From: a virus
Lineage: Duplodnaviria > Caudoviricetes
Length of the DNA: 52,542 bases
Virus record (IMG/VR): IMGVR_UViG_3300013118_000236
Coordinates: 1 to 52,542 of that record
Reading direction: 5' to 3' (one strand)
Of the stretch, positions 1-21,981 are shown in pieces. Under the pieces are notes generated by a model. That model was not told the origin of the DNA. It searched no databases and worked only from the letters and a program-made list of their open reading frames with translations. Each line of letters starts with the position of its first letter. Position 1 is the first letter of the stretch. The position numbers were made by a program, and so were the translations under genes.

Positions 1-2
1 TG

Positions 3-806
3 CTTCCGTTGCTTGTCATACTTGCCGCCTGTCGTTGGAAACTGCTTTGCAACATCAATGGTAGACGGCTCACAGTCCAGCCAGCCATCAGGCGGATCAA
101 GCGATGGGATGAGCGAAGCGACGGGCTCCGGTTCATGGGTGAGTTCCGCATGATCACGGACCTCCTTAAAGTTTTCCTGCAATCTCAAAATCTTGTCGCG
201 AGAGGTCCAGCGACTTTGGTTAGCTGATGCCAGCTTGCCAGCCTCCACATGGTAAACCCACAGACCAGCGCGAGCGGCAGTAAGCGCGTTCCAATCTACG
301 CTTTTAACATAGCGGAGCGATGTGTATGATCCCCACTCCTGATCTGGGCCGTGATAGCCGCTGACGCGGATAGGGATCATTGAGCCCACACCAATACCAG
401 TCTCACGGGCATTTTCAAGTGCACCAGCACGAACACGGCGGGATTCCTCGATGAATACCAGCTTGTCACGCTTCACAACCTCGCACACTCGGCGTGTGTG
501 GCCGCGCAGTTGGCAGTATCCACAGGTCACATTCTTCATGCGCTCGGCTTTCGCCACCTTGTTCTTGACCTTCTCGCCAGTCGCCAGATCAATCTTGGTA
601 CGCTTCATATACTGTTGGCGACGATGCTCGGCGCGTTCTTCGTACCACCTTACATCACCATCGTTACCGGCAGCGCGCTCTTTCTCTGCCATCGCCGCAG
701 CACCATGATACTGATCTTCGATCTGATCTGTGAGTTTTTCACACTTGCGTTTGTTGTGTCCCTGACGGTAGCAGTGTGAGCAGGTTACGGTTCCAGACCA
801 TGACAT
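3..806 (-). CDS. Double CCHC zinc-knuckle protein (3' end runs out of the window)
   Basis: Not in the ORF track because there is no stop in the window. ATG at 806 follows AAAGGAGAA and a promoter. Translation MSWSGTVTCSHCYRQGHNKRKC...TCGYCQLRGHTRRVC gives two CX2CX4HX4C motifs. Confidence 0.8.
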   Translation of the reverse strand, partial: MSWSGTVTCSHCYRQGHNKRKCEKLTDQIEDQYHGAAAMAEKERAAGNDGDVRWYEERAEHRRQQYMKRTKIDLATGEKVKNKVAKAERMKNVTCGYCQLRGHTRRVCEVVKRDKLVFIEESRRVRAGALENARETGIGVGSMIPIRVSGYHGPDQEWGSYTSLRYVKSVDWNALTAARAGLWVYHVEAGKLASANQSRWTSRDKILRLQENFKEVRDHAELTHEPEPVASLIPSLDPPDGWLDCEPSTIDVAKQFPTTGGKYDKQRK

Positions 807-831
807 AATGATTTCTCCTTTCTATACTTAT

Positions 832-886
832 AATATAACAAATCTGACGGGTAAAGTCAAGCTAAACTCTGTCAAGCAGTTGTCAA
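832..886 (-). promoter_or_regulatory. Early sigma70-type promoter P1 with two extra upstream TTGACA boxes
   Basis: TTGACA(886-881), TTGACA(875-870), TTGACT(860-855)-17 nt-TATATT(837-832). Confidence 0.8.
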
Positions 887-1066
887 GAGTTCTAAACTTT
901 TCTCGCCGCACCATTCTTGATGACCGGGACCGAAAAGCGATTCGCCCTGCGTAGTCCACATCACTTGAACGGGTGCGATGTTGCGGGAGTCTCGGTTACA
1001 CGAAACATCCACCACAATACCGATCTGCTCGGTCAGAAAATGTTTAACTAAGTCACCGACTTGCAT
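872..1066 (-). CDS. Small SH3/KOW-like beta-barrel protein (MKVGDLV family)
   Basis: MQVGDLVKH...GIVVDV...VQVMW...LELL. Confidence 0.8.
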   Translation of the reverse strand: MQVGDLVKHFLTEQIGIVVDVSCNRDSRNIAPVQVMWTTQGESLFGPGHQEWCGEKSLELLTTA

Positions 1067-1220
1067 TGATCAACTCCAAAAAGCCGCTACACTCCACGAT
1101 GGGCTTGCGCCTGTTGTTCCACAGCACATATACATCACCAGATTTAGCCCATCGCTTTATGCAGGGCGCAGTAACAATGCCCAAAATGCCATCGAGTCTT
1201 ACCAAATCACCTACTTTCAC
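1053..1220 (-). CDS. Small SH3/KOW-like protein (MKVGDLV family), 55 aa
   Basis: Read manually: MKVGDLVRLDGILGIVTAPCIKRWAKSGDVYVLWNNRRKPIVECSGFLELINASR; GTG start; 14-nt overlaps on both sides. Confidence 0.8.
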   Translation of the reverse strand: MKVGDLVRLDGILGIVTAPCIKRWAKSGDVYVLWNNRRKPIVECSGFLELINASR

Positions 1221-1392
1221 TGATCACCTCTACCCAGCTTTCGGGTTCCCAGTCCGTTCTGCCTGAACCTCCGAGCCACTTTATGCCTACCTGAATAGAA
1301 CTACGGTGATAGTCCCTGTCAACAACAATGCCGACAAATCCCGTGCTATGGGTTTTCATCCTCACCAGATCGCCTATCTTAATGCCGTGCAC
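1207..1392 (-). CDS. Small SH3/KOW-like protein (MKVGDLV family)
   Basis: IKIGDLVRM...GIVVD...GIKW...VEVISESR. Confidence 0.8.
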   Translation of the reverse strand: MHGIKIGDLVRMKTHSTGFVGIVVDRDYHRSSIQVGIKWLGGSGRTDWEPESWVEVISESR

Positions 1393-1579
1393 TGATCACC
1401 TCCAGAGTGTCCGATGAGTGATTAGATTCATCACACCATACAGCCGTCCATAATACGGCAACTTCTTCTTCGTCATTGATGCCTTCGGGATCAACGGCGA
1501 CGACGATGCCCTTTGGCTTTGGGGCACCCTCGTATCTGTGATCAGAATAGCGCATTGTTACAAGATCGCCTACTTTCAT
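1379..1579 (-). CDS. Small SH3/KOW-like protein (MKVGDLV family)
   Basis: MKVGDLVTM...GIVVAV...VAVLW...LEVIS. Confidence 0.8.
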   Translation of the reverse strand: MKVGDLVTMRYSDHRYEGAPKPKGIVVAVDPEGINDEEEVAVLWTAVWCDESNHSSDTLEVISARH

Positions 1580-1758
1580 GCTATCACTCTCATATCTTTG
1601 ACATGGACCCAGCCGCTTGTACGGGTTTTTGGATAGAATACACGGGCCAATGCTTTTGATTCTTCGGCAGTGTTGAGAAGGCGTAAAACGATCCCGATAT
1701 TGGCCTTTTTGCCATTATGGGTATACTCGCTCTGTACCATACTTCCGACTTTGATCAT
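1576..1758 (-). CDS. Small SH3/KOW-like protein (MKVGDLV family)
   Basis: MIKVGSMV...GIVLRL...ARVFY...MRVIA; first gene after P2. Confidence 0.75.
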   Translation of the reverse strand: MIKVGSMVQSEYTHNGKKANIGIVLRLLNTAEESKALARVFYPKTRTSGWVHVKDMRVIA

Positions 1759-1783
1759 AGATTTTTTCCCTTTCTACACCTAT

Positions 1784-1837
1784 AATATAGCCACTTGTGG
1801 GCTATTGTCAAGGCTTCAAATGTCAAGAGGATGTAAA
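1784..1837 (-). promoter_or_regulatory. Early promoter P2 with extra upstream boxes
   Basis: TTTACA(1837-1832), TTGACA(1826-1821), TTGACA(1811-1806)-16 nt-TATATT(1789-1784). Confidence 0.75.
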
Positions 1838-2020
1838 GTGTTCCAAGAACATTTCGTGAAACTTTAACTGTGTACCTGTCCCAAGAAAAACGATCGTGTA
1901 AGATTCGGTATAGTTTCCCGAAGCATCGGCGCGGTCGATGATCATGCCGGCCCGGTGATCAGGGATCTCAGCCGCATGGGTTCCGTCGCGGATCTTCACC
2001 AGATCACCTATCTTGAACAC
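1823..2020 (-). CDS. Small SH3/KOW-like protein (MKVGDLV family, 'DGTH..IPDHR' subfamily)
   Basis: FKIGDLVKIRDGTHAAEIPDHR; close paralog of 7726..7935. Confidence 0.8.
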   Translation of the reverse strand: MFKIGDLVKIRDGTHAAEIPDHRAGMIIDRADASGNYTESYTIVFLGTGTQLKFHEMFLEHFTSS

Positions 2021-2198
2021 TTAAAACCTCGAGCCATTTTGTCGGCTCCCACGATGCTTCTGCATCTTCAATCCAGTAAACTTTAACACGGTGAAGACTC
2101 GGTGTTCCACGATTGATGCCATCGGGCTTCGTTCGCAAAACAACTCCCGTTGCGGGATAGATAGAACCGGGCATATGTACCAAGTCACCCACTTGCAC
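2004..2198 (-). CDS. Small SH3/KOW-like protein (MKVGDLV family)
   Basis: MQVGDLVH...GVVLR...VKVYW...LEVLS. Confidence 0.8.
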   Translation of the reverse strand: MQVGDLVHMPGSIYPATGVVLRTKPDGINRGTPSLHRVKVYWIEDAEASWEPTKWLEVLSVQDR

Positions 2199-2361
2199 TG
2201 ACCACCTCCAAATGTTTATAATGAATATATCTTGTCTCGCCGTTTGACCAAAACACGCCGATTAGGTTCTTTGCTGTTTTGTGGATCTCAACAATAAGCC
2301 TCGGATCATACCAATGACCATTCGCAGAAACCACCAGATCACCTATTTTAATGCGTTTCAC
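2185..2361 (-). CDS. Small SH3/KOW-like protein (MKVGDLV family)
   Basis: Start reassigned to GTG 2361 (GTGA overlap with the upstream gene): MKRIKIGDLVV...LIVEI...GVFW...LEVVSASG. Confidence 0.75.
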   Translation of the reverse strand: MKRIKIGDLVVSANGHWYDPRLIVEIHKTAKNLIGVFWSNGETRYIHYKHLEVVSASG

Positions 2362-2519
2362 GCGCTGACCAATACTGTTACGTCTGAGCGCAATGCACAT
2401 ATGTCGCGAGGATGCTTTTGTGGCTTGATGTGTATACCATCTTCATCAATCAGAACAATAACTCCTAACTTCGTGCCGTAGTGCTTTGTGTTAACTCTTA
2501 CCAGATCGCCAACTTTCAT
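2358..2519 (-). CDS. Small SH3/KOW-like protein (MKVGDLV family), 53 aa
   Basis: Read manually: MKVGDLVRVNTKHYGTKLGVIVLIDEDGIHIKPQKHPRDICALRSDVTVLVSA. Confidence 0.8.
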   Translation of the reverse strand: MKVGDLVRVNTKHYGTKLGVIVLIDEDGIHIKPQKHPRDICALRSDVTVLVSA

Positions 2520-2608
2520 GGTTGCTCCCTATTCTTTTTTTGTTTTTGTTGTTTGAGGTACTTTTCGCGCTCTTCATTCAACTTCTTGAGAGTCTCTAAA
2601 TCCCACAT
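2516..2608 (-). CDS. 30-aa hypothetical peptide
   Basis: GGAGGT RBS; MWDLETLKKLNEEREKYLKQQKQKKNREQP; ATGA overlap with the next gene. Confidence 0.55.
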   Translation of the reverse strand: MWDLETLKKLNEEREKYLKQQKQKKNREQP

Positions 2609-2639
2609 AAATACCTCCAGTTGTTTTCTTCATACATAT

Positions 2640-2694
2640 AATATAAGACCGCGAAGCGGTTACGGCAAGTTTTTTCTTGTCAAGCATATGTCAT
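2640..2694 (-). promoter_or_regulatory. Early promoter P3 with extra upstream boxes
   Basis: ATGACA(2694-2689), TTGACA(2683-2678), TTGCCG(2668-2663)-17 nt-TATATT(2645-2640). Confidence 0.7.
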
Positions 2695-3344
2695 GACTTT
2701 GACTTTTTGGGCTTCGGAGCTTTCTTCAGTCGACGTTCCTCTACCCAAAATGAAATCGTTGAGCCTACGGGCAGGATCTTGTAACGCTTGGCACCCTTTG
2801 CTGCTGACTGAATAAGGCTGCTTATTTCAATAACAAATCCGCCGCGTCTCTTAAAATCACTGAATACGTGACGACTGAGCCGGCCAGAGTCAGCAGCAAA
2901 CAAGTCACTATGCTGGCATGCTGCATTACCCACAATATAATCGCCAAGACTAAACTTCGAAAGTTTCTTAGCCTCGGTCAAAACTTTCGCTGCGTATTTA
3001 TTGTTTAGCATCTTGTAAAACTGATGCCGCTGGGGTACTAATCCATTTTGAATGTCGCGCACAACCTCTTGATAGTAGGGAGTTTTGCTATAATAGAACG
3101 CGAGGATCTCTGCATTGTCGTACCAAGAGTTTTGATATTCTTGCGGCCAAGCTGCAAGGGCCTTGACTGCTTCCTCGGTGTTCTCGTTAAAAATGCGAGT
3201 TAGTACCTCCATCTGTTTCCCCGAGAGACGACGCCCACGATCAATCTGATCAACGATTGATTCGCAAAAACCGCGGGACCAATCATTAAATGTTGGATAA
3301 TCTTGTATTTGCTTGATTCGTGCTTTGATTGCATGTTCGGTCAT
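2691..3344 (-). CDS. Hypothetical phage protein, possible C-terminal SH3-like domain
   Basis: 217-aa ORF; C-terminal FSLGDYIV...GFVIEI...YKIL...WVEERRLK pattern. Confidence 0.7.
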   Translation of the reverse strand: MTEHAIKARIKQIQDYPTFNDWSRGFCESIVDQIDRGRRLSGKQMEVLTRIFNENTEEAVKALAAWPQEYQNSWYDNAEILAFYYSKTPYYQEVVRDIQNGLVPQRHQFYKMLNNKYAAKVLTEAKKLSKFSLGDYIVGNAACQHSDLFAADSGRLSRHVFSDFKRRGGFVIEISSLIQSAAKGAKRYKILPVGSTISFWVEERRLKKAPKPKKSKS

Positions 3345-3424
3345 TGTGTCCTGCTTTACTTAAATATGTTGAAAAAGAGATTTTTAGGTGGAAAAAAATG
3401 GCGGAAAAAATCGCGGCGATCGAA

Positions 3425-3826
3425 CTAAAACTCGATGCTCCTGTTGACACAAATATCTCCCCACATCGCGTCACCACGATACTCAATATCCTCGGTTTCT
3501 TCACCGATGCGAATGAACTTGTAAAACTCAAATGCGGGATTTGTTTTTTCTTTGCCTTCATAATCTTTCTTGCCCGTGGGAAGATCCTCGCCATCGCACC
3601 AGTCCATGAAGTCGGTGAGAGCGCGAACACACTCAAACGAGTCATACCACTTGAGCCAGCCCCACTTGAAAAGAAACGATCCCTTTTCTCCATTGTAGTC
3701 TTTGACCATATTATCGGCGTCAGCAAAGCACAACTCTCGCGCTCTTGGCGACTTAGCCATAGTGACCAAGAACTGAGGCATAACCTCTGGACCGACATAT
3801 AAAACAACTTCTGAACGATAACCCAT
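3425..3826 (-). CDS. Hypothetical phage protein (MGYRS-start family)
   Basis: MGYRSEV...LKWY...FIRIGEE..D pattern; AAAGGAGAA RBS after P4. Confidence 0.75.
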   Translation of the reverse strand: MGYRSEVVLYVGPEVMPQFLVTMAKSPRARELCFADADNMVKDYNGEKGSFLFKWGWLKWYDSFECVRALTDFMDWCDGEDLPTGKKDYEGKEKTNPAFEFYKFIRIGEETEDIEYRGDAMWGDICVNRSIEF

Positions 3827-3848
3827 GTATTCTCCTTTCTATATCTAT

Positions 3849-3903
3849 AATATAGCACCCAAACGCATCACTGTCAACGGCTAAGTTGTCAACTAATCGT
3901 CAA
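3849..3903 (-). promoter_or_regulatory. Early promoter P4 with extra upstream boxes
   Basis: TTGACG(3903-3898), TTGACA(3892-3887), TTGACA(3877-3872)-17 nt-TATATT(3854-3849). Confidence 0.8.
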
Positions 3904-4240
3904 CGACGAAATGTACCCCGATAGGCGCGACACCACGTGGAACCTCGCCGTCAACGATACCGCCGTGCTTTGCCAGCACATTCGTCACCACTTGAACCGG
4001 CACATACGCATAAACCGTTTGTGTTGGCTTGTCTGGTTCCTCTGCGTATTCCATGATCATATCTTCCCTTTGGCTGGGAAAGCCTACCTCTACTTCTTCG
4101 TATTTGTCTGCTCCACTCATCCTTGGGGTACAATACGCACCATGATGCGCCTGCACGCTCATCTTAAAACCATCGGCGCATACCACCTGTCGGTTTCTGT
4201 TGGAACCAACTGTATTAAAAAACTCATTCGCGCTACCCAT
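3893..4240 (-). CDS. Hypothetical phage protein
   Basis: CADGFKMSVQA...YCTPR...EVEVGFPS...YAYVP...KHGG, a motif pattern I recall from phage proteins of unknown function; AAAGGAG RBS. Confidence 0.75.
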   Translation of the reverse strand: MGSANEFFNTVGSNRNRQVVCADGFKMSVQAHHGAYCTPRMSGADKYEEVEVGFPSQREDMIMEYAEEPDKPTQTVYAYVPVQVVTNVLAKHGGIVDGEVPRGVAPIGVHFVVDD

Positions 4241-4539
4241 TATTCAAACTCTCCTTTTTTGACAAACTTTAAGTCATTTCTGAGAAAATACGCATCTTCT
4301 CTATTCTTGTTAAAACTCCGCCCCCAGCGCCCATTCGGGCCATCACTTTGCATCCACCTGACGTAGAATCGTGTCTTTTCGTTAACGGAAGTCCATGAAT
4401 AGACTTTTGGCACTGTTTTGATTTCCATAACCAAACCGACGAGGGGCCTCTTTTCAATCCAAATCCGTCGCGACCAACGGCGCAAATCATTTGTTTGAAG
4501 GGCGTATGCCGATAATGTTACTAAATCACCTACTTTCAT
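4240..4539 (-). CDS. SH3/KOW-like protein with long loops (MKVGDLV family)
   Basis: MKVGDLVTL...GLVMEI...FYVRW...LKFVK. Confidence 0.8.
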   Translation of the reverse strand: MKVGDLVTLSAYALQTNDLRRWSRRIWIEKRPLVGLVMEIKTVPKVYSWTSVNEKTRFYVRWMQSDGPNGRWGRSFNKNREDAYFLRNDLKFVKKGEFE

Positions 4540-4874
4540 GCCTGAATCTCCACGGGGATTGCGTCAAGGTTATAACTTCGATCTGCCATTCTGTCCCAAC
4601 TAATCTCGCACCACTCAGAAAAAATCTTCCAAAGCTGCTCGCTCGGCATTTCTTTCAGTCTCTCTTGGTCCCACTCAATCGCTTCGGTCTGATCGCCATC
4701 GGTTTCTGCATACGGGTTACAATCGTTCATAACTGACAAAGCGGTTTCGTCATCGTCAACACCCAAAAACTCTGTTATATCCGAAATGCACGCGAGCGCA
4801 CAACCTTTCTGTGTCAGATGTACGCTGCTAAACAACTCGCCTTCGTAGCTTCCCTGCATAACCCAAACTTTCAT
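4536..4874 (-). CDS. Hypothetical acidic phage protein
   Basis: 112-aa ORF; ATGA overlaps on both sides; GAGGTG RBS. Confidence 0.7.
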   Translation of the reverse strand: MKVWVMQGSYEGELFSSVHLTQKGCALACISDITEFLGVDDDETALSVMNDCNPYAETDGDQTEAIEWDQERLKEMPSEQLWKIFSEWCEISWDRMADRSYNLDAIPVEIQA

Positions 4875-5020
4875 CCAACCACCTCAAACGCAGCTTTGAA
4901 CTGCCACATCTTATGGTTGTGTTTCTGACTAACAACCAGCACTTGATCTGCGATAACATCAAGAGCAATCCATTTGCTGTGATTGCCCCACATTCTAAGT
5001 AGCGATCCAACTTCGATCAT
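4871..5020 (-). CDS. Small SH3/KOW-like protein, 49 aa
   Basis: Read manually: MIEVGSLLRMWGNHSKWIALDVIADQVLVVSQKHNHKMWQFKAAFEVVG; AAAGGAGAA RBS after P5. Confidence 0.7.
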   Translation of the reverse strand: MIEVGSLLRMWGNHSKWIALDVIADQVLVVSQKHNHKMWQFKAAFEVVG

Positions 5021-5042
5021 TGTTTCTCCTTTCTATACCTAT

Positions 5043-5097
5043 AATATAACATAAGGGGGTGCGGGTAGCAAGGGTATTCTTGTCAAGTGAATGTCAA
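5043..5097 (-). promoter_or_regulatory. Early promoter P5 with extra upstream boxes
   Basis: TTGACA(5097-5092), TTGACA(5086-5081), TTGCTA(5071-5066)-17 nt-TATATT(5048-5043). Confidence 0.75.
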
Positions 5098-5333
5098 GAG
5101 ATTTGACTGTTCGCCCAGGGTTCGATATATGCTTGTCTGTCGCCATCTTTTGCAACAGTAAAAGCGTCGGTTGTGAGCATCGGATTGATGCCACGCTTAA
5201 TAATAAACCATTCTTGGCCGCTAACTTGGAGCAAATCAGGGTATGGACGGCCGTGAGACTGCGGGTGCATATCCACCACAATAGCCATAACTCCGGGGTT
5301 AAACTTATACATTACCAAATCACCGACTTTCAT
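5094..5333 (-). CDS. Small SH3/KOW-like protein (MKVGDLV family)
   Basis: True start MKVGDLVMY at 5333; the longer track ORF crosses promoter P6. Confidence 0.75.
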   Translation of the reverse strand: MKVGDLVMYKFNPGVMAIVVDMHPQSHGRPYPDLLQVSGQEWFIIKRGINPMLTTDAFTVAKDGDRQAYIEPWANSQIS

Positions 5334-5467
5334 ACGCGCACCTTTCCTCGGCATGCCTTTTTGTTGGCTGCCTTCTTGCGATCCTTCATCGCTCCAGCGC
5401 GACGAAAGTGCGCGGCAACTGCGATCCAGTTCCGGCGCTTTGGGGTATTGGTCTTTTTCTTCTTCAT
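5330..5467 (-). CDS. 45-aa highly basic peptide, probably leaderless
   Basis: MKKKKTNTPKRRNWIAVAAHFRRAGAMKDRKKAANKKACRGKVRV; ATG 7 nt after the P6 -10 box; ATGA overlap with the next gene. Confidence 0.7.
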   Translation of the reverse strand: MKKKKTNTPKRRNWIAVAAHFRRAGAMKDRKKAANKKACRGKVRV

Positions 5468-5473
5468 ACATAT

Positions 5474-5528
5474 AATATAGCATAGTGGGATGCGGGTAGC
5501 AAGGGTATTCCTGTCAAGTGAATGTCAA
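5474..5528 (-). promoter_or_regulatory. Early promoter P6 with extra upstream boxes
   Basis: TTGACA(5528-5523), TTGACA(5517-5512), TTGCTA(5502-5497)-17 nt-TATATT(5479-5474). Confidence 0.75.
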
Positions 5529-5532
5529 GTGT

Positions 5533-5727
5533 CTAAATAACATTCCAGGCACCGTAATCGCTTCTTTCGATGATTTCTCCGTGCTTGAGGATCTTGGCTA
5601 TCCCGGTGCGCTGATCAACATCAATGACCAGCCCGATCCATTCGGCAAAGGTGCCTATACATTCGTGTACCACGTCACCTGGAAAGATAAATCGCACGGG
5701 CCGGGCTTCCATTTCTTCAGGACTCAT
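5533..5727 (-). CDS. Small SH3/KOW-like protein
   Basis: FIFPGDVVH...GLVIDV...AKIL; AAGGAGAGG RBS after P7. Confidence 0.7.
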   Translation of the reverse strand: MSPEEMEARPVRFIFPGDVVHECIGTFAEWIGLVIDVDQRTGIAKILKHGEIIERSDYGAWNVI

Positions 5728-5749
5728 TTGTTCCTCTCCTTATACATAT

Positions 5750-5794
5750 AATATACCACCGAAACGCCCCTAAGTCAAGTCAAGGAGTTGTCAA
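5750..5794 (-). promoter_or_regulatory. Early promoter P7 (box pair 10 bp closer to -35)
   Basis: TTGACA(5794-5789), TTGACT(5783-5778), TTGACT(5778-5773)-17 nt-TATATT(5755-5750). Confidence 0.75.
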
Positions 5795-5986
5795 GTAAAC
5801 CACATCATCATTTCTTTCGTTGACAAGGTATTTGCCCCCATCGATCCACACAACCCACAACAAATCTTTCCAGCCGCCCGCCTGTCGATCATCGGACTCA
5901 AAACTTTCCAATACAACGCCGGGGTTAGACCAATCCTCGTCACCGAACGATTTTGGCTTGAACGATATTAGATCACCGACTTTCAT
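5780..5986 (-). CDS. Small SH3/KOW-like protein (MKVGDLV family)
   Basis: MKVGDLISF...GVVLE...WVVW. Confidence 0.8.
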   Translation of the reverse strand: MKVGDLISFKPKSFGDEDWSNPGVVLESFESDDRQAGGWKDLLWVVWIDGGKYLVNERNDDVVYLTTP

Positions 5987-6131
5987 TCAACAACTCCCAA
6001 GAGGTTGAGTTGAAAACTTGGTTAGGAGATTCGCCAGCAACCTTGAAATATGCACCGTGCTCATTGACACACCATATCACAATACTGATCCTACCTGTGA
6101 ACTTGCACCTAATCAGATCACCCACATTCAT
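5973..6131 (-). CDS. Small SH3/KOW-like protein (MKVGDLV family), 52 aa
   Basis: Read manually: MNVGDLIRCKFTGRISIVIWCVNEHGAYFKVAGESPNQVFNSTSWELLNESR. Confidence 0.8.
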   Translation of the reverse strand: MNVGDLIRCKFTGRISIVIWCVNEHGAYFKVAGESPNQVFNSTSWELLNESR

Positions 6132-6318
6132 TCAAAATCTCCAGTTGATCGAGCGGGGTCGAATAAACTTCGCCTTCCCACAACACGTGGGCGTGAGTAA
6201 TAACAGTCCACCCATCTTTATCTAATGCGGTTGCATAGGTATCATCCTCAATAAAAATGCCAGTGATGGGTTTTTCATTCGGACCAAAACTTACTTTTAC
6301 CAGATCACCGTGTTTCAC
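6118..6318 (-). CDS. Small SH3/KOW-like protein (MKVGDLV family)
   Basis: MKHGDLVKV...GIFIE...AHVLW...LEILNECG. Confidence 0.8.
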   Translation of the reverse strand: MKHGDLVKVSFGPNEKPITGIFIEDDTYATALDKDGWTVITHAHVLWEGEVYSTPLDQLEILNECG

Positions 6319-6493
6319 TTACTAACTCCCAATCATCTTCGCGGAGCCAGCCCACAGATTCTCCATGGGCAAGCACCTTTATCCAGTTGATTCGTGTCTC
6401 TGTCACGATATGTATGCTGCTGCTCTTGAAGGACGCCGCCGTAAGTACATGATATTGTCTGTATTTCTTTCTCACCAGATCACCGACTTTCAC
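6305..6493 (-). CDS. Small SH3/KOW-like protein (MKVGDLV family)
   Basis: MKVGDLVRK...IVTE...IKVL...WELVSETR. Confidence 0.8.
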   Translation of the reverse strand: MKVGDLVRKKYRQYHVLTAASFKSSSIHIVTETRINWIKVLAHGESVGWLREDDWELVSETR

Positions 6494-6677
6494 TTAGCAC
6501 CTCGACGTATCCAATGGGATACCATGATTCTTGTCCCTCTTCCAAAACTTTAACTAACCCTAAGCCGTTTGGGTGCTGTCCACTCTTGTTGACTTCCAAC
6601 ACAATGCTTACAAAGTTAGCGCAATCCTCTACACGGCTTGAGTGATAACCCACCTTTACCAGATCACCCACCTTCAC
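6480..6677 (-). CDS. Small SH3/KOW-like protein (MKVGDLV family)
   Basis: MKVGDLVKV...IVLEV...VKVL...VEVLSESR. Confidence 0.8.
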   Translation of the reverse strand: MKVGDLVKVGYHSSRVEDCANFVSIVLEVNKSGQHPNGLGLVKVLEEGQESWYPIGYVEVLSESR

Positions 6678-6846
6678 TCAGCACCTCAAGCATCTTTATA
6701 AACTCGTAAGTCATATCCCCGTCATTCCATTGAATCCTTGCCACGCGATTGCCGTGGTCAATCGCTGTCTCTTGGGGTCCAACCTCCACAACAATGCCGT
6801 GGTGTATGTGGTCATCCCTTCTTTTAACTAAGTTACCGACTTTCAT
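6664..6846 (-). CDS. Small SH3/KOW-like protein (MKVGDLV family)
   Basis: MKVGNLVKR...GIVVEV...ARIQWNDG...LEVLSEGG. Confidence 0.8.
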   Translation of the reverse strand: MKVGNLVKRRDDHIHHGIVVEVGPQETAIDHGNRVARIQWNDGDMTYEFIKMLEVLSEGG

Positions 6847-7057
6847 CAATCACCTCTAAATCTGTGATAGGGACTGTACGCTTGTCACCGTTAATCAATA
6901 CGATTGCGTGTGGCTCTGGATCGATCTTGCCCCAGTCTACCTTGCTGCCAAGCTCATCTGTGCGCCAACACTTCTTTTCTATCAAATCAACAATGAGGCC
7001 GGCGCGGAATGATGCTCCGTGAACTGCTGAAAGTTTAACTAAGTCACCTATTTTCAT
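6833..7057 (-). CDS. Small SH3/KOW-like protein (MKVGDLV family), probably leaderless
   Basis: MKIGDLVKL...GLIVDL...LEVIDESR; ATG 7 nt after the P8 -10 box with no RBS. Confidence 0.8.
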   Translation of the reverse strand: MKIGDLVKLSAVHGASFRAGLIVDLIEKKCWRTDELGSKVDWGKIDPEPHAIVLINGDKRTVPITDLEVIDESR

Positions 7058-7063
7058 ATATAT

Positions 7064-7118
7064 AATATAGCACCAAAGCCGGCGCTCGTCAACCTCTAAG
7101 TTGTCAAGTGAGTGTTAA
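7064..7118 (-). promoter_or_regulatory. Early promoter P8 with extra upstream boxes
   Basis: TTAACA(7118-7113), TTGACA(7107-7102), TTGACG(7092-7087)-17 nt-TATATT(7069-7064). Confidence 0.8.
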
Positions 7119-7123
7119 GTGCG

Positions 7124-7330
7124 CTAAACTTTTCCAGGCTGCCCCTTTGGGCTAACAACTTTTAGCTTTGAGCGTTGCCACCATCCGATAGGGTTGTTTT
7201 CGGATGACCACAGGATTTTACATTCGATCCCTTTAGTCTCGGTCACCAATCCAACGCAAGAAATATCGCGTTCCTCATCGTAGAGCGCGACAACCAGATC
7301 ACCGATGCTTGGGGCGCCGCTATCCTTCAT
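7124..7330 (-). CDS. Small SH3/KOW-like protein (MKVGDLV family)
   Basis: PSIGDLVV...GLVTE...CKILW...LKVVS. Confidence 0.75.
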   Translation of the reverse strand: MKDSGAPSIGDLVVALYDEERDISCVGLVTETKGIECKILWSSENNPIGWWQRSKLKVVSPKGQPGKV

Positions 7331-7348
7331 TGAACACCAGTCTTACAA

Positions 7349-7654
7349 TCAATAATCATCTAACTCGGCACCGTTTGTGATTGTATCGATATATCCAGTT
7401 GGAACCTTAACAACCATGGTGCGCCAACCTTCCCATTTAGGCCACACATCAAAAAAAGGAAACGAATCGTTTTGTGACTCAATCGTGGCACTCACGTTTT
7501 CGACTTCAACCTGAATCTCCAGATGTGTACCACCGTCATCTGAAGCGGCCAAAACCTCATAGCGTCCATCAAAGTAGTTAGAAATGTACACCAAAAGATT
7601 GTTGATTGCTTGCTGCTTAGGAGCCTTCTCCTCATTAAAAAATATATTCGCCAT
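7349..7654 (-). CDS. Hypothetical protein
   Basis: Likely start MANIFF at 7654 behind AAGGGG. Confidence 0.6.
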   Translation of the reverse strand: MANIFFNEEKAPKQQAINNLLVYISNYFDGRYEVLAASDDGGTHLEIQVEVENVSATIESQNDSFPFFDVWPKWEGWRTMVVKVPTGYIDTITNGAELDDY

Positions 7655-7725
7655 CGGTTCAGTCCCCTTAGATAAGTAAGAGAATAAAACACTTTTAACC
7701 TTTTCAAAAAAATGAACCATAAAAA

Positions 7726-7935
7726 TCAATCTACTTTTTGTATTGGAACAATGAAATATCCATTAAATCTATAAGTTTTTTCTGAACCAAGAAACATTAA
7801 ATCGTATTCTTCACTTGCGCGTACATAGTCGGATCCGGGGACTGCGCTACTGGAAACTATTATAGCTGTCCGATGATCCGGAATACCATCCTCGTGTGTT
7901 CCATCCTTTAATCTTACTAAGTCACCGACTTTCAC
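7726..7935 (-). CDS. Small SH3/KOW-like protein ('DGTH..IPDHR' subfamily)
   Basis: MKVGDLVRLKDGTHEDGIPDHR; paralog of 1823..2020. Confidence 0.8.
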   Translation of the reverse strand: MKVGDLVRLKDGTHEDGIPDHRTAIIVSSSAVPGSDYVRASEEYDLMFLGSEKTYRFNGYFIVPIQKVD

Positions 7936-8122
7936 TTACCACCTCAAGCCTTCCAGAATCCACCCACCAAGTCTCTCCGTCGTTAAACAAAACTTGTGCT
8001 GATACTGTATCATGTCCTGTCTTGGATATTTGAATCACCAAGCCGTGTTCTGTGCGGGGGTTGGCTTCAAACACATCGAACTCCAAATCGCTATCAAACT
8101 TTACCAAATCACCGGCTTTCAC
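7922..8122 (-). CDS. Small SH3/KOW-like protein (MKVGDLV family)
   Basis: MKAGDLVKF...GLVIQI...AQVLFNDG...LEVVSESR. Confidence 0.8.
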   Translation of the reverse strand: MKAGDLVKFDSDLEFDVFEANPRTEHGLVIQISKTGHDTVSAQVLFNDGETWWVDSGRLEVVSESR

Positions 8123-8291
8123 TTATGACCTCCAATGTCCATATGCTGCTCCAATCAATCGGACATTCTTCCCACTCATCAACCCAGTGGACTTTAACCT
8201 GCTTGCCGCTCGCCTTAATATCGAGAACAATGCCATGTCCCAGCCATCCAGCCGGATCATTCTTCACTTTTACCAGATCGCCCACTTTCAT
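8109..8291 (-). CDS. Small SH3/KOW-like protein (MKVGDLV family)
   Basis: MKVGDLVKV...GIVLDI...VKVHW...LEVISESR. Confidence 0.8.
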   Translation of the reverse strand: MKVGDLVKVKNDPAGWLGHGIVLDIKASGKQVKVHWVDEWEECPIDWSSIWTLEVISESR

Positions 8292-8388
8292 TTATAATCT
8301 CAAAATCAAAACATTCGGTACACATTTCAGACTCTTTAATAGTTTTGCGAGACAACTCTATTATTGCTCTGCGGTGAAACCTAATCAT

Positions 8389-8417
8389 ATTATAGTGCGA
8401 TTCGATGCATCTGTCAA
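8389..8417 (-). promoter_or_regulatory. Consensus sigma70 promoter
   Basis: TTGACA(8417-8412)-17 nt-TATAAT(8394-8389). Confidence 0.8.
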
Positions 8418-8668
8418 TCAGTTTTCTCTCGTCGGGGTTCACTCTTTTCTTCCTTTTGACAAACAATGGAGGCATCCTGTTCTTCGTGTAGTTTAACCAC
8501 ATAAAAAACTTTACCTTCGTAAATCTCACACGGGAATACCGATACAGGCATCACAGCCACTGCGGGACCGCCATTAGATGCCGGTGTTGTACTTAGTTCC
8601 ACCGTTGCAAAATATGGGTCATAGGAATCAATCATTCCAACTAAAATAAATGTTGTTAAGTATGTCAT
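8414..8668 (-). CDS. Hypothetical protein
   Basis: Likely start MTYLTTF at 8668 behind GGAGAG; ACTATTTA motif upstream. Confidence 0.6.
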   Translation of the reverse strand: MTYLTTFILVGMIDSYDPYFATVELSTTPASNGGPAVAVMPVSVFPCEIYEGKVFYVVKLHEEQDASIVCQKEEKSEPRREKTD

Positions 8669-8684
8669 TTTCTCTCCGTTTAAG

Positions 8685-9035
8685 TTATGTATACATTTTA
8701 AGAATAGTAAATAGTTCAGCCGAACAAAGACCAGCAGCATCTTTTTGTGCGCCGGAGCTGGCACATTCAAAATCTTCTTGTAACCAAACCAGCAAAGTCT
8801 CAGCAGCATATGCTAACTTTTCATCTGGCACAGCCTGTGTGATCAGAAATGTTATGTTGGCGTAACGATTGTGGATACTGGCATATTCTTGTCTATAAGA
8901 GTCGCACGTATCCCTGCATGAATCAACTACTTGTAACAATCTGTCCGTACCCCAAGAACCAAGTGATTCTCTCAAATGGTGACTATTTTTAACGCTACGC
9001 GGGAGTCCGGTCTTCTCTATATAAAAATCATTCAT
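8685..9035 (-). CDS. Hypothetical protein
   Basis: 116-aa ORF in a tightly packed operon. Confidence 0.6.
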   Translation of the reverse strand: MNDFYIEKTGLPRSVKNSHHLRESLGSWGTDRLLQVVDSCRDTCDSYRQEYASIHNRYANITFLITQAVPDEKLAYAAETLLVWLQEDFECASSGAQKDAAGLCSAELFTILKMYT

Positions 9036-9250: not shown

Positions 9251-9327
9251 TGGTACGTCCTGTAGGATTCGAACCTACGGCCCTTGGCTTAGAAGGCCAA
9301 TGCTCTATCCAACTGAGCTAAGGACGC
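9251..9327 (-). tRNA. tRNA-Arg(UCU)
   Basis: GCGTCCTTAGCTCAGTTGGATAGAGCA-TTGGC-CTTCTAA-GCCAA-GGGCCGTAGGTTCGAATCCTACAGGACGTACCA; cloverleaf with encoded CCA. Confidence 0.95.
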
Positions 9328-9335
9328 ATATGTAT

Positions 9336-9363
9336 AATATAATCACTTATGAGACAATGTCAA
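9336..9363 (-). promoter_or_regulatory. Sigma70-type promoter for tRNA-Arg
   Basis: TTGACA(9363-9358)-16 nt-TATATT(9341-9336). Confidence 0.65.
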
Positions 9364-9541
9364 CAATTTCGTCATATGTTTTGACATTTGCTTGACCATC
9401 AATCAGCAGCACAAGGCACGCCTTTTTGTTTTTTCGCTTTTCGTACAATTCGTGCCATGCCTTGCTGCGATCATTGGCCGCGGCATGAGTCTCAAATGAA
9501 AATCGTCCACCATTATCTTGAAATACAGCAGTGTAGATCAT
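9347..9541 (-). CDS. Hypothetical protein
   Basis: 64-aa ORF; ATGA overlap with the upstream peptide. Confidence 0.6.
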   Translation of the reverse strand: MIYTAVFQDNGGRFSFETHAAANDRSKAWHELYEKRKNKKACLVLLIDGQANVKTYDEIVDIVS

Positions 9542-9690
9542 TTTCCTTGGCCCCGATAACGCTTCTTATAGCCTCTGTTGCCTCCGTGTGGGCCCGGCTG
9601 CTTGTGTTTAGTCTGAGTGCTGTTGCCAATTGAAGTTTTCTTCTTGTGGCTCCTTGATGTTGTTGATGATGAATTTTTTTTACTAGCCAT
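9538..9690 (-). CDS. 50-aa basic peptide (KKTSIG...KKRYRGQGK type)
   Basis: Read manually: MASKKNSSSTTSRSHKKKTSIGNSTQTKHKQPGPHGGNRGYKKRYRGQGK; AAGGAG RBS. Confidence 0.7.
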   Translation of the reverse strand: MASKKNSSSTTSRSHKKKTSIGNSTQTKHKQPGPHGGNRGYKKRYRGQGK

Positions 9691-9712
9691 GCGGCTTCTC
9701 CTTTTGTTAAAA

Positions 9713-9789
9713 TGGTGGGCTTTGTGGGACTTGAACCCACGACCAACCGGTTATGAGCCGGATGCTCTGACCAACTGAGCTAAAAGCCC
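9713..9789 (-). tRNA. tRNA with CAU anticodon, most likely tRNA-Ile2 (lysidine type)
   Basis: GGGCTTTTAGCTCAGTTGGTCAGAGCA-TCCGG-CTCATAA-CCGGT-TGGTCGTGGGTTCAAGTCCCACAAAGCCCACCA. G1-C72 is paired, so it is not an initiator; the body resembles bacterial Ile2. Confidence 0.9.
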
Positions 9790-9795
9790 GCAGAC

Positions 9796-9966
9796 TTATC
9801 TGCAAAGTGGTGGTTTTGCGAAAAGCATAAAACCTTTTCTCTGTTTCCAGCCATATTTTTTGATATAGCTTTCTTTAGCACTTTTGCTATCAACACCTTC
9901 AGCGATGCCAATAGATGTATATTTTTGTGTTTCAATGTTATATTCCATTATTGTGAAATCAATCAT
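9796..9966 (-). CDS. Hypothetical protein
   Basis: Start MIDFTI at 9966 behind AAGGAG, between two tRNAs. Confidence 0.6.
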   Translation of the reverse strand: MIDFTIMEYNIETQKYTSIGIAEGVDSKSAKESYIKKYGWKQRKGFMLFAKPPLCR

Positions 9967-9982
9967 TTTTACTCCTTGTGAG

Positions 9983-10058
9983 TGGTGGGTCACGCAGGAT
10001 TCGAACCTGCGGCCGGCGGGTTAAAAGCCCGATGCTCTACCAACTGAGCTAGTGACCC
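9983..10058 (-). tRNA. tRNA-Lys(UUU)
   Basis: GGGTCACTAGCTCAGTTGGTAGAGCA-TCGGG-CTTTTAA-CCCGC-CGGCCGCAGGTTCGAATCCTGCGTGACCCACCA. Confidence 0.95.
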
Positions 10059-10322: not shown

Positions 10323-10351
10323 ATAATAACCGATCCAAAAGCGAATGTCAA
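10323..10351 (-). promoter_or_regulatory. Sigma70-type promoter
   Basis: TTGACA(10351-10346)-17 nt-TATTAT(10328-10323). Confidence 0.7.
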
Positions 10352-10593
10352 GAGGATTTATCACCATCGGCACTACTAATCACTTCAAAGCCGTCATGTA
10401 TCATATGTATCATCAGCAAAGTGCCATCGCTTCTCATCTGGCACACTATTACGTTGTTGGGATCAGTCTTCGAGACTTCAAATATTATACCGTAGGCATA
10501 CACTGGTTTGATTGGAAAAACCTCATCCTCTGTAACCTCAAACAGATCGTGTTCAGTGATCCATCTGATAAGATCGCCCTTCTTTAAGTCCAC
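10348..10593 (-). CDS. SH3/KOW-like protein (outlier of the MKVGDLV family)
   Basis: LKKGDLIRW...GIIFEV...VIVC...FEVIS. Confidence 0.7.
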   Translation of the reverse strand: MDLKKGDLIRWITEHDLFEVTEDEVFPIKPVYAYGIIFEVSKTDPNNVIVCQMRSDGTLLMIHMIHDGFEVISSADGDKSS

Positions 10594-10882: not shown

Positions 10883-11030
10883 TTTCTAAACTCAGGTCAC
10901 TTATCAATGATTCAAGAAATTCTTTCTGAATCTTACAATCAAGCAAATCCTTTCTAAGTCTGGCTTCCCTCTCTTTGAGAATTTGTAACTGAATCAGGCA
11001 GAAGTGTTTTACTTTTTGATCGTGATTCAT
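10875..11030 (-). CDS. 51-aa coiled-coil hypothetical protein
   Basis: Read manually: MNHDQKVKHFCLIQLQILKEREARLRKDLLDCKIQKEFLESLISDLSLEND; fills the gap and overlaps both neighbours. Confidence 0.55.
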   Translation of the reverse strand: MNHDQKVKHFCLIQLQILKEREARLRKDLLDCKIQKEFLESLISDLSLEND

Positions 11031-11269
11031 TTTTTATTGCTGCCGCAACCCTTACACCTACTTGCTCGTGGGCGTTCTCTGTATTGTTTTTTCGTCATCA
11101 CGATCTTCTTAAAATTAGCCAACTCATCTTCCATCAAAGCGCCATTCATAAAGGCGCGTACTGTTTCGTCAACGAGAGCAGCATATACTACTACTGTGTG
11201 AGTCGGGGAGTGCAAGATCATCTCGCCGGGACGTAAAAGCTTTGAGTCACTTATTTCTTCAAATTCCAT
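11027..11269 (-). CDS. Hypothetical small beta-barrel protein with C-terminal CxxC
   Basis: LLRPGEMILH...RCKGCGS. Confidence 0.6.
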   Translation of the reverse strand: MEFEEISDSKLLRPGEMILHSPTHTVVVYAALVDETVRAFMNGALMEDELANFKKIVMTKKQYRERPRASRCKGCGSNKK

Positions 11270-12168
11270 CAATCATCCACTGTATTCAACTGGTCATATG
11301 AATTATACTTCAATTTTGTTAATTTGTTTAGCACTTTAGCTCGCCGTAGCATCTTAAAAGCAATATTTTCTGGTGAGTATTCCATGAGTTCACTTTCCAA
11401 GCCGGCAGATCGCATACTACGTATTTTATTTTTAAGCCTTTCCACATTCCTCAATACCTTGTCATGCTCACCATCGGCATAGTCGGCCTCAATGGATCTG
11501 GTTTGCTCGTCAATGTCGGTCGCTTTCTTACGTGCTGTTTCAATATCTATGGTTTGCTCAATGTATTCTGGGTGTTTGATCCACTCGTCATTCATCAGAG
11601 AGTACACACCCGTTGACTTATGATCTTCGCCGCTGTTTTCAACATAAATTTCAACGTCGTAATCTTTTATTGTTATATCATGGATATCATTCCAGCGCAT
11701 CCTCTGGGCATCAAAAAATCCTTTGACCAAATCTCCGTTCTCATCTATTGTATCGAAGCTTACGATGATATGAAGGTCAACATCAGAATACTTGGACCAG
11801 TTATAATTTGCAAGCGAGCCGGTTAATGTAATGTCTTCCACTTTTACTCGGATAGGCAGATCATCCACAAAATCATTAGCTATTTTTATAAGTTTCTTTC
11901 TAATCTCTGGTTCAATTTTTTCGTCGCCCCAGATCTGAGGATCCAAATCATCATGAATTTTGAACGAATCAACATCAACTTCAAGCTCTTCTTCTAGTTG
12001 CTTATCAAATGTTACGTGAGTGCCCATTTTTTTGGAATATGGTGGAGTATTTTTATTGCCGCCTTTGCCGAGCATCTTATTCCTGTCTGAAATATAGGAC
12101 CGGATGCGGTTCTTGAAACTGTTGGCTTCCTCAACGGACGCTATATAATCTTTCCATTCTTCCATCAT
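11269..12168 (-). CDS. Pol-beta-superfamily nucleotidyltransferase
   Basis: TGSLANYNWSKYSDVDLH (GS...DxD) plus a third acidic motif DVEIYV; start reassigned to MMEEW after ACTATTTA. Confidence 0.8.
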   Translation of the reverse strand: MMEEWKDYIASVEEANSFKNRIRSYISDRNKMLGKGGNKNTPPYSKKMGTHVTFDKQLEEELEVDVDSFKIHDDLDPQIWGDEKIEPEIRKKLIKIANDFVDDLPIRVKVEDITLTGSLANYNWSKYSDVDLHIIVSFDTIDENGDLVKGFFDAQRMRWNDIHDITIKDYDVEIYVENSGEDHKSTGVYSLMNDEWIKHPEYIEQTIDIETARKKATDIDEQTRSIEADYADGEHDKVLRNVERLKNKIRSMRSAGLESELMEYSPENIAFKMLRRAKVLNKLTKLKYNSYDQLNTVDD

Positions 12169-21482: not shown

Positions 21483-21776
21483 TTATCCTCTTAAAATTTG
21501 TTTGTTTGTGTGTAGTGTTTTTTCAATAATCTCCGGAGCGCCGATTACTACAATTTCGGTACCCGTATTTCCTTTATCAATTGTTATTTTTGAAAACCGA
21601 TGGTTGGTATCTAAACCTTTGTCTATCAGACCTTCTTCGTTTAACTGCCTAAGTCTGTGCTCCTCTCGGACCATAACAACGTGTTCGGGATTGACGAAGA
21701 CTTCTCTTAGTGCGTATTTGGCGTTGGTGGTAACTGCTCCGGTTCCGCACACCTCAGTTAGCTTAACTAGTCCCAT
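21483..21776 (-). CDS. Hypothetical protein
   Basis: Start MGLVKLTEV behind GAGG; VFVNPEHVVMVRE motif. Confidence 0.65.
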   Translation of the reverse strand: MGLVKLTEVCGTGAVTTNAKYALREVFVNPEHVVMVREEHRLRQLNEEGLIDKGLDTNHRFSKITIDKGNTGTEIVVIGAPEIIEKTLHTNKQILRG

Positions 21777-21981
21777 TGAGTTCCTCCAGTGGATATACAT
21801 CTCTTCTTTTAAGCTTCCACGCGTGGCCGTTAGCATAAACTTGATAAACATGGTGACTCATTCTGCTCAAGTAAACACCAACAGTTGGTCTTTCGGTCCT
21901 TCTCAATCTCATTCCTTTATCGGTTTCACACCACAGTTCCACGTCTTGGGGGATGTGAATCAGATCTCCTTGTTGCATCAC
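21763..21981 (-). CDS. Small SH3/KOW-like protein (outlier)
   Basis: QQGDLIHI...GVYL...YQVY...W. Confidence 0.6.
   Translation of the reverse strand: MMQQGDLIHIPQDVELWCETDKGMRLRRTERPTVGVYLSRMSHHVYQVYANGHAWKLKRRDVYPLEELNGTS

Follow-up and report, generated by a model that had tools for sequence, protein, structure and literature searches.

The stretch of DNA analyzed here, hereafter the window, spans an entire IMG/VR virus record (IMGVR_UViG_3300013118_000236; Duplodnaviria, Caudoviricetes) of 52,542 bases that is estimated to be 27% complete and in which the long frames all lie on the minus strand. At 872 to 8291, it contains an array of ∼7 kb with 24 minus-strand mini-genes encoding proteins of 49 to 99 amino acids (aa) (Table 1). 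The initial annotation, made from the sequence alone, had described these genes as paralogs built on one frame; all 24 are present and align along M-K-V-G-D-L-V...G-I-V...V-x-V-x-W...L-E-V-I, with G4 invariant and L6 conserved in at least 90% of the 24-member alignment. The four members that the annotation had noted as absent from its track of open reading frames (ORFs), at 1053 to 1220, 2358 to 2519, 4871 to 5020, and 5973 to 6131, are open frames and match the family hidden Markov model (HMM) with E-values of 3.7e-7, 1.3e-11, 2.4e-8, and 1.8e-11, respectively, values that are circular because the HMM was trained on all 24 members.

Within the array, 13 consecutive gene pairs overlap by 14 nucleotides (nt), or by 17 nt where the downstream gene carries one extra residue. 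The downstream start codon lies 11 nt ahead of the upstream stop codon, and this stop is the TGA contained in the downstream GGT-GAY (Gly-Asp) codons, or TAA where the downstream gene has G-N, as in member 19. Read one base earlier, the downstream K-V-G-D codons become the upstream tail S-E-S-R (or N-E-S-R, S-E-G-G, or N-E-C-G) followed by the stop. The Shine-Dalgarno sequence, GAGGT or GGAG, is located 6 to 12 nt before the start within the upstream L-E-V(-I) codons and is strong, GGAGGTGATC-like; in the fullest of these sequences, ten bases match the complement of the 16S rRNA 3' end. GTG is the start codon in 9 of the 13 coupled genes, while all 11 other genes start with ATG. Genes at the end of an operon lack the S-E-S-R tail and retain the alternating hydrophobic last strand. 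The junction sequence, ∼30 nt long, makes up the repeat families D1 to D3, D5, D7, and D9. With this geometry, the junction would couple translation of the two genes by termination and re-initiation. Some database relatives (P0121, P0130, P0149, and P0157) consist of two barrels in one frame (125 to 129 aa, or 100 aa), as is expected of a junction losing its stop. Longer fused forms of the family did not appear in the search, which is weak evidence, and the proteins are free-standing at 50 to 70 aa.

Table 1. Genes, junctions, and promoter matches of the array, from high to low coordinates. Core, number of 300 shuffles reaching the real core score after removal of the termini; type, number of the 16 other loci containing the same type (≥50% identity).
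Feature	Coordinates	Strand	Length (aa)	Core (n/300)	Type (n/16)	Remarks
Member 24	8109-8291	-	60	0	4	Operon head; ATG; Gly codon GGC
Member 23	7922-8122	-	66	0	10	GTG start; 14-nt overlap with member 24
Member 22	7726-7935	-	69	6	1	Divergent G-T-H..P..R subfamily; 14-nt overlap
Non-member gene within array	7349-7729	-	up to 126			No Pfam or PHROG match
Member 21	7124-7330	-	68	0	4	N-terminal extension; no junction tail
Member 20	6833-7057	-	74	22	4	Operon head right behind promoter module
Member 19	6664-6849	-	60-61	0	6	G-N replaces G-D, giving upstream stop TAA
Member 18	6480-6677	-	65	3	6	14-nt overlap
Member 17	6305-6493	-	62	21	0	14-nt overlap
Member 16	6118-6318	-	66	0	1	14-nt overlap
Member 15	5973-6131	-	52	108	1	14-nt overlap; support is termini and strand pattern only
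Member 14	5780-5986	-	68	0	9	Last gene of operon; no S-E-S-R tail
Member 13	5533-5727	-	64	0	1	13-residue N-terminal extension; single-gene unit with own promoter
Member 12	5094-5333	-	79	0	2	Length from inner ATG
Member 11	4871-5020	-	49	263	1	Weakest member
Non-member gene	4536-4874	-	112			4-nt overlap on each side; no Pfam or PHROG match
Member 10	4240-4539	-	99	0	7	Long β1-β2 insert and C-terminal extension
Three non-member genes dividing the array	2691-4240	-	115, 133, 217			
Member 9	2358-2519	-	53	14	4	Operon head
Member 8	2185-2400	-		0	3	Barrel begins near 2352; ATG at 2400 adds 16 residues
Member 7	2004-2198	-	64	0	7	14-nt overlap
Member 6	1823-2020	-	65	1	3	G-T-H..P..R subfamily, as member 22; 17-nt overlap
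Member 5	1576-1758	-	60	0	4	Operon head
Member 4	1379-1579	-	66	1	4	4-nt ATGA overlap with member 5
Member 3	1207-1392	-	61	0	10	14-nt overlap; upstream stop TAA
Member 2	1053-1220	-	55	0	6	14-nt overlap
Member 1	872-1066	-	64	0	7	14-nt overlap; last gene of operon
13 dual-coding junctions	1053-1066, 1207-1220, 1379-1392, 2004-2020, 2185-2198, 5973-5986, 6118-6131, 6305-6318, 6480-6493, 6664-6677, 6833-6849, 7922-7935, 8109-8122	-				Overlap 14-17 nt
Nine sigma-70-like promoter matches	first hexamer at 860, 1811, 2668, 3877, 5071, 5502, 5778, 7092, 8417	coding (-)				Consensus matches; -10 TATATT or TATAAT

The overlap raises the question of how much of the family resemblance belongs to the proteins. 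At the extreme, the family would be an artefact of the junction, i.e., a collection of unrelated short ORFs that look alike only because of their overlapping start, stop, and Shine-Dalgarno signals and that share neither ancestry nor fold. The dual reading of S-E-S-R as the next gene's M-K-V-G in another frame, the position of L-E-V over the Shine-Dalgarno sequence, and the tailless operon-end genes are what such an artefact would leave behind. Indeed, the codon register of the overlaps shows the S-E-S-R tail and part of L-E-V-I to be by-products of the overlap. By contrast, the M-K-V-G-D-L-V first strand and the hydrophobic pattern of β5 are protein features because they are still kept in uncoupled genes. 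A census of 1020 unique member contexts from 137 related loci and the window leads in the same direction. GGTGA was present in 826 of these contexts, 608 of which have an upstream frame that stays open over 40 codons or more, and the Gly codon was GGT in 846 contexts and GGC in 102. The 194 contexts without GGTGA have GGC as their consensus Gly codon and nonetheless conserve the M-K-V-G-D-L-V codons; as synonymous sites vary, conservation acts at the protein level, and this argues against an artefact. The synonymous divergence dS was 0.62 in the overlapped N-terminal codons versus 1.26 in strands and 1.72 in loops. Thus, the conserved termini are largely dictated by the overlapping junction, with the qualification that the first strand and the pattern of the last one are kept without it.

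Because both termini might be junction-imposed, homology was also assessed on the middles of the genes alone. After removal of the first 8 and last 10 residues, each core was scored against a profile of the other cores and 125 database relatives, from which training sequences with ≥40% identity were excluded, and compared with 300 shuffles. Fifteen of the 24 cores scored above all 300 shuffles and 18 were reached by at most three; the cores of the members at 1379 and 1823 were reached by one shuffle each, that at 6480 by three, and that at 7726 by six. With the weaker profile built from the window only, 11 of 24 cores remained at 0/300. The shuffle-like cores, 5 of 24 with the full profile and 10 of 24 with the window-only profile, are the part of this test that an artefact would explain; the cores that beat their shuffles are difficult to reconcile with it. 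The possibility raised in the initial annotation that members share nothing other than junction-encoded termini therefore applies by sequence to at most 5 of the 24 members, and we regard a pure junction artefact as improbable.

The annotation also proposed three outlying members. The frames at 10348 to 10593 and 21766 to 21981 are weak candidates (8.8 and 5.9 bits, with E-values valid only for a four-sequence database), and that at 11027 to 11272 was rejected as a family member at −1.8 bits with the family profile. A window-wide family search at E<1 recovered none of the three.

Two of the 24 members were modeled with AlphaFold2, the typical member at 8109 to 8291 and the divergent member at 7726 to 7935, and strands were assigned with DSSP. 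Using an alignment of 149 relatives, the former was predicted with a pLDDT (predicted local distance difference test) of 89.4 to have five strands (residues 6 to 9, 19 to 25, 31 to 37, 45 to 49, and 53 to 57), with a short helical turn preceding the last. Its Foldseek neighbors (TMq 0.62 to 0.77, probability 1.00) are the Spt5/NusG KOW, TDRD3/PHF Tudor, and PWWP domains, NdhS, the HERC2 CPH domain, and ribosomal L24-type barrels, while its top matches in a viral structure library are many unnamed small viral proteins. For the divergent member, modeled with 21 relatives of its subfamily, the prediction (pLDDT 81.1) has five strands in the same order; by exhaustive structure alignment (VIA), it is close to Tudor, KOW, EF-P domain I, CarD, the UvrD C-terminal Tudor domain, and PsaE (Z 5.3 to 4.2, root-mean-square deviation 2.1 to 3.3 over 46 to 55 residues). 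Both models therefore have the five antiparallel strands, and the superposition on solved barrels, that define the SH3-like small β-barrel class, and a profile search of PDB sequences gave weak matches only, mostly to small SH3-like barrel domains. The SH3/KOW/Tudor-like fold that had been anticipated from the strand pattern is supported for two of the two members tested, including the divergent one. That the same predicted five-strand barrel is found in a member whose core tests weakly speaks further against a junction artefact.

The scaffold is fixed and the loops differ in length and sequence, as had been claimed. Across the 24-member alignment, β1-β2 spans 8 to 29 residues, β2-β3 9 to 26, and β3-β5 14 to 27, with the greatest length variation at β1-β2 and β2-β3. 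In SH3-type domains, these two segments correspond to the RT loop and the n-Src loop, respectively, and they are often binding surfaces. Members 22 and 6, together with 20 relatives in other loci, form a subfamily with G-T-H..(I/M)-P..R in the first loop, in which P19 is invariant and R22 nearly so, and most of its members end in L-K-F-H-E-M-F-L-E. The conserved loop residues of this subfamily could mark a shared ligand site.

The nine coding-strand sigma-70-like matches precede operon heads, and such matches total 31 compared to 16.7 ± 3.6 in shuffles. They are located in repeated modules of ∼76 nt (repeat families D4, D6, D8, and D10). Terminator-like hairpins are not enriched (11 versus 9.1 ± 2.6 in shuffles); two of them lie inside promoter modules (7086 to 7069 and 2660 to 2648). 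The modules at 5023 to 5098 and 5454 to 5529 are 86% identical over 76 nt and look like a recent module duplication or insertion; they flank a possible basic ORF of 45 aa (5330 to 5467) and member 12. The start of the frame at 5094 to 5483 is most probably at 5333, since the portion upstream of this position crosses a promoter module, and the database relative P0124 has a similar N-terminal read-through of a promoter module. A short frame at 8292 to 8417 lies between a 12-of-12 promoter match (8417 to 8389) and member 24. Its end resembles a junction tail (..F-E-I-I-N-E-S..) and continues since member 24 has GGC rather than GGT; this frame may be what is left of an upstream cassette that was lost.

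The family is widespread in viral sequences. The family profile matched 162 proteins in a word-indexed search and at least 1178 cluster representatives (50% identity) at E ≤0.001; nearly all of the database relatives have 50 to 75 aa, and many share an S-E-S-R-type tail. The junction motif was found in at least 118 viral-contig stretches, and 119 viral loci (1.03 Mb) contain 987 family matches. Complete relatives in IMG/VR have genomes of 191 to 203 kb, and five of them carry 17 to 26 matches apiece, almost all of which cluster within a single stretch of roughly 17 to 22 kb.

Several observations show that the content of the array turns over cassette by cassette. First, related loci were retrieved with the 133-aa and 217-aa non-member genes as markers, and the 19 loci around the 133-aa marker contain 347 members of 142 types, of which 69 are singletons, with only one type duplicated within a locus. 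When the loci are reduced to 17 non-redundant ones, 94 of the 142 types occur in a single locus, 16 in at least 5, and 3 in at least 10, while 23 of the 24 types of the window recur in other loci. Second, the downstream family neighbor is kept in 36 of 409 shared cassettes (8.8%), and the gross order of the array is partly retained (Kendall tau 0.29 to 1.00 in 11 loci). Third, of 54 distinct blocks found by blastn between the window array and related loci, 46 correspond to exactly one cassette. The block ends lie at a median of 6 nt from a cassette boundary compared to 43.2 ± 4.8 nt for random positions, and 76% of them lie within 15 nt of a boundary versus 21% at random (maximum 36% in 1000 trials). 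These block ends show the whole cassette as the unit of change or exchange. Thus, content and order vary among related phages, and the shuffling that had been proposed is borne out. Contigs of four marine DNA runs compared with positions 1 to 9000 gave joints at 1197/1230, 5312/5333, 6472, 7914/7938, and similar positions, with sides of 19 to 31 nt on junction repeats; we rejected these as rearrangements and attribute them to matching repeats of other cassettes. Pieces identical to the window came from run X5 of another study, and one of these pieces spans the junctions at 1053 to 1066 and 1207 to 1220.

The closest described system is, by analogy, the shuffling of promoter-early stem-loop (PeSL) cassettes in the hyperplastic regions of T4-type phages (Arbiol et al. 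2010, PMC2839356). Both regions are rich in small, apparently non-essential genes of no known function; both have strong sigma-70-like promoters as repeated modules, represented here by the consensus matches before operon heads; and in both, small units bounded by repeats, in the array mostly by junctions, are inserted, deleted, or replaced among relatives. However, the commonest connector in the array is a coding, dual-frame overlap of stop, start, and Shine-Dalgarno sequence inside operons, while the PeSL element consists of a promoter and a terminator stem-loop, and the hairpin counts given above provide no counterpart of a stem-loop terminator in the repeated element. Moreover, the cargo here belongs mostly to one fold family while PeSL cargo consists of unrelated ORFans. 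A second parallel is Bacillus phage G, for which Iyer et al. (2021, PMC7824862) describe ∼35 copies of a zinc ribbon proposed to be transcription factors or structural DNA-binding proteins. In both cases, a large phage genome encodes one small domain tens of times over; the array differs in its SH3-like barrel, its uncultured marine lineage, its old types present once per genome, its overlapping junction, and its exchange between genomes. Small-domain expansions in large phages are already known; the array is set apart by a coding overlap as its main connector and by a cargo drawn mostly from one protein family.

The patchy distribution would also fit cassettes that are mainly selfish or near-neutral passengers. 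These would persist because recombination through the junction and promoter repeats lets them move between co-infecting phages, and the phage would gain little from them. The many types confined to one locus, the rarely kept neighbors, and the cassette-sized blocks are all as expected of passengers, as is the analogy with the PeSL-bounded ORFans of T4-type phages (PMC2839356). However, the substitution patterns point elsewhere. Among orthologs (33 types, 495 pairs, Nei-Gojobori method), the ratio of nonsynonymous to synonymous divergence (dN/dS) was roughly 0.225, and the proportions of nonsynonymous (pN) and synonymous (pS) differences were 0.30 and 0.68 in loops and 0.20 and 0.61 in strands. 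Loops as well as strands are clearly under purifying selection, with the loops only moderately freer. Similarly, all five complete relatives keep their 17 to 26 copies in ∼10% of the genome, and some types are widespread, which passengers of little benefit would not readily explain. We therefore consider the passenger explanation unlikely.

The same comparisons bear on the age of the cassettes. Core identity among the 276 paralog pairs of the window has a median of 23% and a maximum of 39%, and because it reaches at most 39%, no paralog is a recent duplicate. The proposed expansion by duplication and shuffling thus holds for shuffling and not for recent duplication, as is also evident from the single within-locus duplicate type in 19 loci. 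In the comparison of substitution rates that had been suggested, loops are somewhat freer than strands; ongoing hypervariation is not seen, as loops are conserved within types.

The SH3-like small β-barrel domains (surveyed in bioRxiv 10.1101/140376) include KOW (PF00467), Tudor/PWWP/chromo, PsaE, and NdhS; the window family resembles them in its five-strand barrel and its G-D-x-V type first strand but differs in lacking sequence membership and in being free-standing at 50 to 70 aa. Scans of 10 window members against Pfam and PHROG returned nothing significant, and 149 members gave sporadic weak Pfam matches only, mostly to SH3-like families, with no family matched by more than 5 of the 149. 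The KOW cut-off of 22.3 bits was not reached (best 13.3 bits, for 1 of 10 members), and KOW is not among the Pfam families matched at E ≤0.05 by the 149 members, 1 of which matched KOWx_SPT5. The bacterial DUF2158/YodC (PF09926) and DUF1918 (PF08940) proteins are likewise free-standing barrels of ∼55 to 60 aa with a similar first strand, and one database relative bears the JGI (Joint Genome Institute) name "YodC (DUF2158)"; however, matches are sporadic and weak. DUF2158 was matched, without significance, by 1 of 149 members (E 0.0051, i.e., best E 5e-3) and by none of 10 window members, and DUF1918 by 5 of 149 (best E 2e-4) and again by none of the 10, with the PDB relative 2a7y at E 0.17. 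Neither family is known to form arrays or to occur in phages.

The structural neighbors could be taken to indicate that all barrels bind nucleic acids or the transcription or translation machinery in one common function, as KOW-like proteins, RNA-polymerase binders resembling CarD or the UvrD Tudor domain, or Sm/Hfq-like RNA chaperones, with the copies tuning phage expression. NusG/Spt5 KOW, CarD, the UvrD C-terminal Tudor domain bound to the RNA-polymerase lobe, EF-P domain I, L24-type barrels, and Cren7 are all among these neighbors, and 7 of the 24 members are basic, with an isoelectric point (pI) above 8. Nevertheless, charge is very uneven, with pI ranging from 4.3 to 10.2, 15 members acidic and 2 near neutral, and 161 of 347 members across the 19 loci have a pI <6.5. 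Pfam KOW is not matched at its cut-off, at least 142 types, each present once per genome, would not be needed for one shared function, and likeness among small barrels does not indicate function. The chance that one function is common to all members is, in our judgment, small.

Genes for subunits that are needed in a fixed ratio are typically tightly coupled, and the coupling geometry of the array would fit barrels that form homo- or hetero-oligomers such as Sm-like rings or R67-DHFR-like tetramers, with coupling ensuring equal amounts. Sm/Hfq and R67 DHFR (dihydrofolate reductase) are oligomerizing small SH3-like barrels, and R67 DHFR is among the weak neighbors (VIA Z 4.2; protein atlas lead at 0.87). 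Yet with neighbors kept in only 36 of 409 cases and a set of copies that varies by genome, fixed hetero-complexes are difficult to envision, and we consider an oligomer highly improbable.

We favor a model, moderately probable as a whole, in which an array of mini-genes of one fold, a dual-coding junction, promoter-led operons, and cassette exchange together supply early binding modules with different targets. The array would be the variable ("hyperplastic") region, expressed early, of an uncultured marine phage with a genome of ∼190 kb. Its 24 mini-genes would be distributed over roughly eight short operons, each led by a sigma-70-like promoter module, and each mini-gene would encode one free-standing SH3/KOW/Tudor-like small β-barrel of ∼50 to 70 residues. 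Each cassette represents an old, distinct type under purifying selection, and related genomes draw their 17 to 26 copies from a very large pool. We suggest that the ∼30-nt junction repeat and the repeated promoter modules provide the homology for gain, loss, and swapping of cassettes. The proteins would be made early and act as separate binding modules, in which the variable RT-like and n-Src-like loops recognize different targets in the host or in competing elements. The barrels would then serve as accessory factors in host takeover or counter-defense, as first annotated, and not as essential phage machinery.

Several points weigh against this model. By sequence, five cores are shuffle-like, those of the members at 2358 (14 shuffles), 6305 (21), 6833 (22), 5973 (108), and 4871 (263 of 300). 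The barrel is predicted for two folded members of 24, and the structural matches are modest, with Foldseek E-values of at least 0.013 for 8109 to 8291 and at least 0.59 for 7726 to 7935, as is typical of barrels of ∼60 residues, and with VIA Z below 8 for the latter. Translational coupling is deduced from geometry alone and early expression from sigma-70-like consensus matches only, as no RNA run was found to contain the stretch, and cassette-bounded blocks do not place the recombination site at the junction. The dN/dS values are rough because dS is near saturation (pS 0.6 to 0.7), and the conservation of loops within types speaks against individual cassettes being caught in a rapid arms race.

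A bolder extension, which we put forward tentatively and consider possible but doubtful, is that the ∼30-nt junction has evolved as a universal connector that ends one gene, loads ribosomes on the next, and gives homology for the trade of cassettes. The clade would then share an ocean-wide library of more than 1000 small β-barrel binders, of which each genome samples ∼20 to suit its current hosts and their defenses, as a phage counterpart of the integron cassette pool on one scaffold. With regard to that comparison, a general Pfam scan of 30 window proteins found no integrase, in a window that covers ∼27% of the genome.

The lineage is distant from deposited phages. Megablast of the array, tblastn of one member (E ≤0.01), and tblastn of the 133-aa marker gave no match to deposited phages, and the DnaE-type Pol III alpha of the window is at most 31% identical to that of any deposited phage. 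The clusters closest to the family in a protein atlas consist of viral proteins without names; the named entries SH3-C_UBE2O, DsrB, R67 DHFR, and DUF4314, with scores of 0.86 to 0.89, are no more than leads. A literature search found nothing on the mini-barrel family; supplements of papers, which lie outside such a search, could hold gene lists. The junction pattern was also found in 11 stretches from metagenome-assembled genomes (MAGs), 9 of which contain family members. These are labeled Deltaproteobacteria, Halobacteriovorax, Legionellales, Acidiferrobacteraceae, Flavobacteriales, WOR-3, and others; we draw no host from these labels because they disagree and because the WOR-3 "chromosome" has a run of Ns between its bacterial genes and the array. 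In that stretch (L146, from a MAG labeled candidate division WOR-3), at least three members with a typical junction lie beside EF-G-like and V-type ATPase-like bacterial genes on the other side of this run, an arrangement that is probably a scaffolding join and not a prophage.

In addition to Pol III alpha, the window codes for a chaperonin, a class II ribonucleotide reductase, DnaB, RecA, a split family-A polymerase, ClpP, a GMP-reductase/IMPDH-type enzyme, a methylase, and an amidase as well as three tRNAs. The chaperonin (21978 to 23555), ClpP protease (23611 to 24252), and GMP-reductase/IMPDH-type enzyme (26089 to 27126) are an unusual set in a phage without a cultured relative; a paper on chaperonins (PMC5332604) deals with archaeal viruses and sheds no light on this one. 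The tRNA genes, Arg-TCT, Met-CAT, and Lys-TTT, are located at 9251 to 10058 on the strand of the array and directly upstream of it, interspersed with small ORFs and sigma-70-like matches at 9363 and 10351.

If the favored model is true, about one-tenth of the genome in widespread uncultured marine phages of 190 to 200 kb would be given over to a modular library with a single protein scaffold. It would be a natural place to look for small, stable binders, possibly including inhibitors of bacterial machinery or of anti-phage defense, and the junction would be a clear case of a short DNA element that serves translation in two frames and possibly recombination. As a family outside Pfam, PHROGs, and deposited phages as searched, the mini-barrels represent a sizeable piece of unnamed viral dark matter that can now be profiled and counted.

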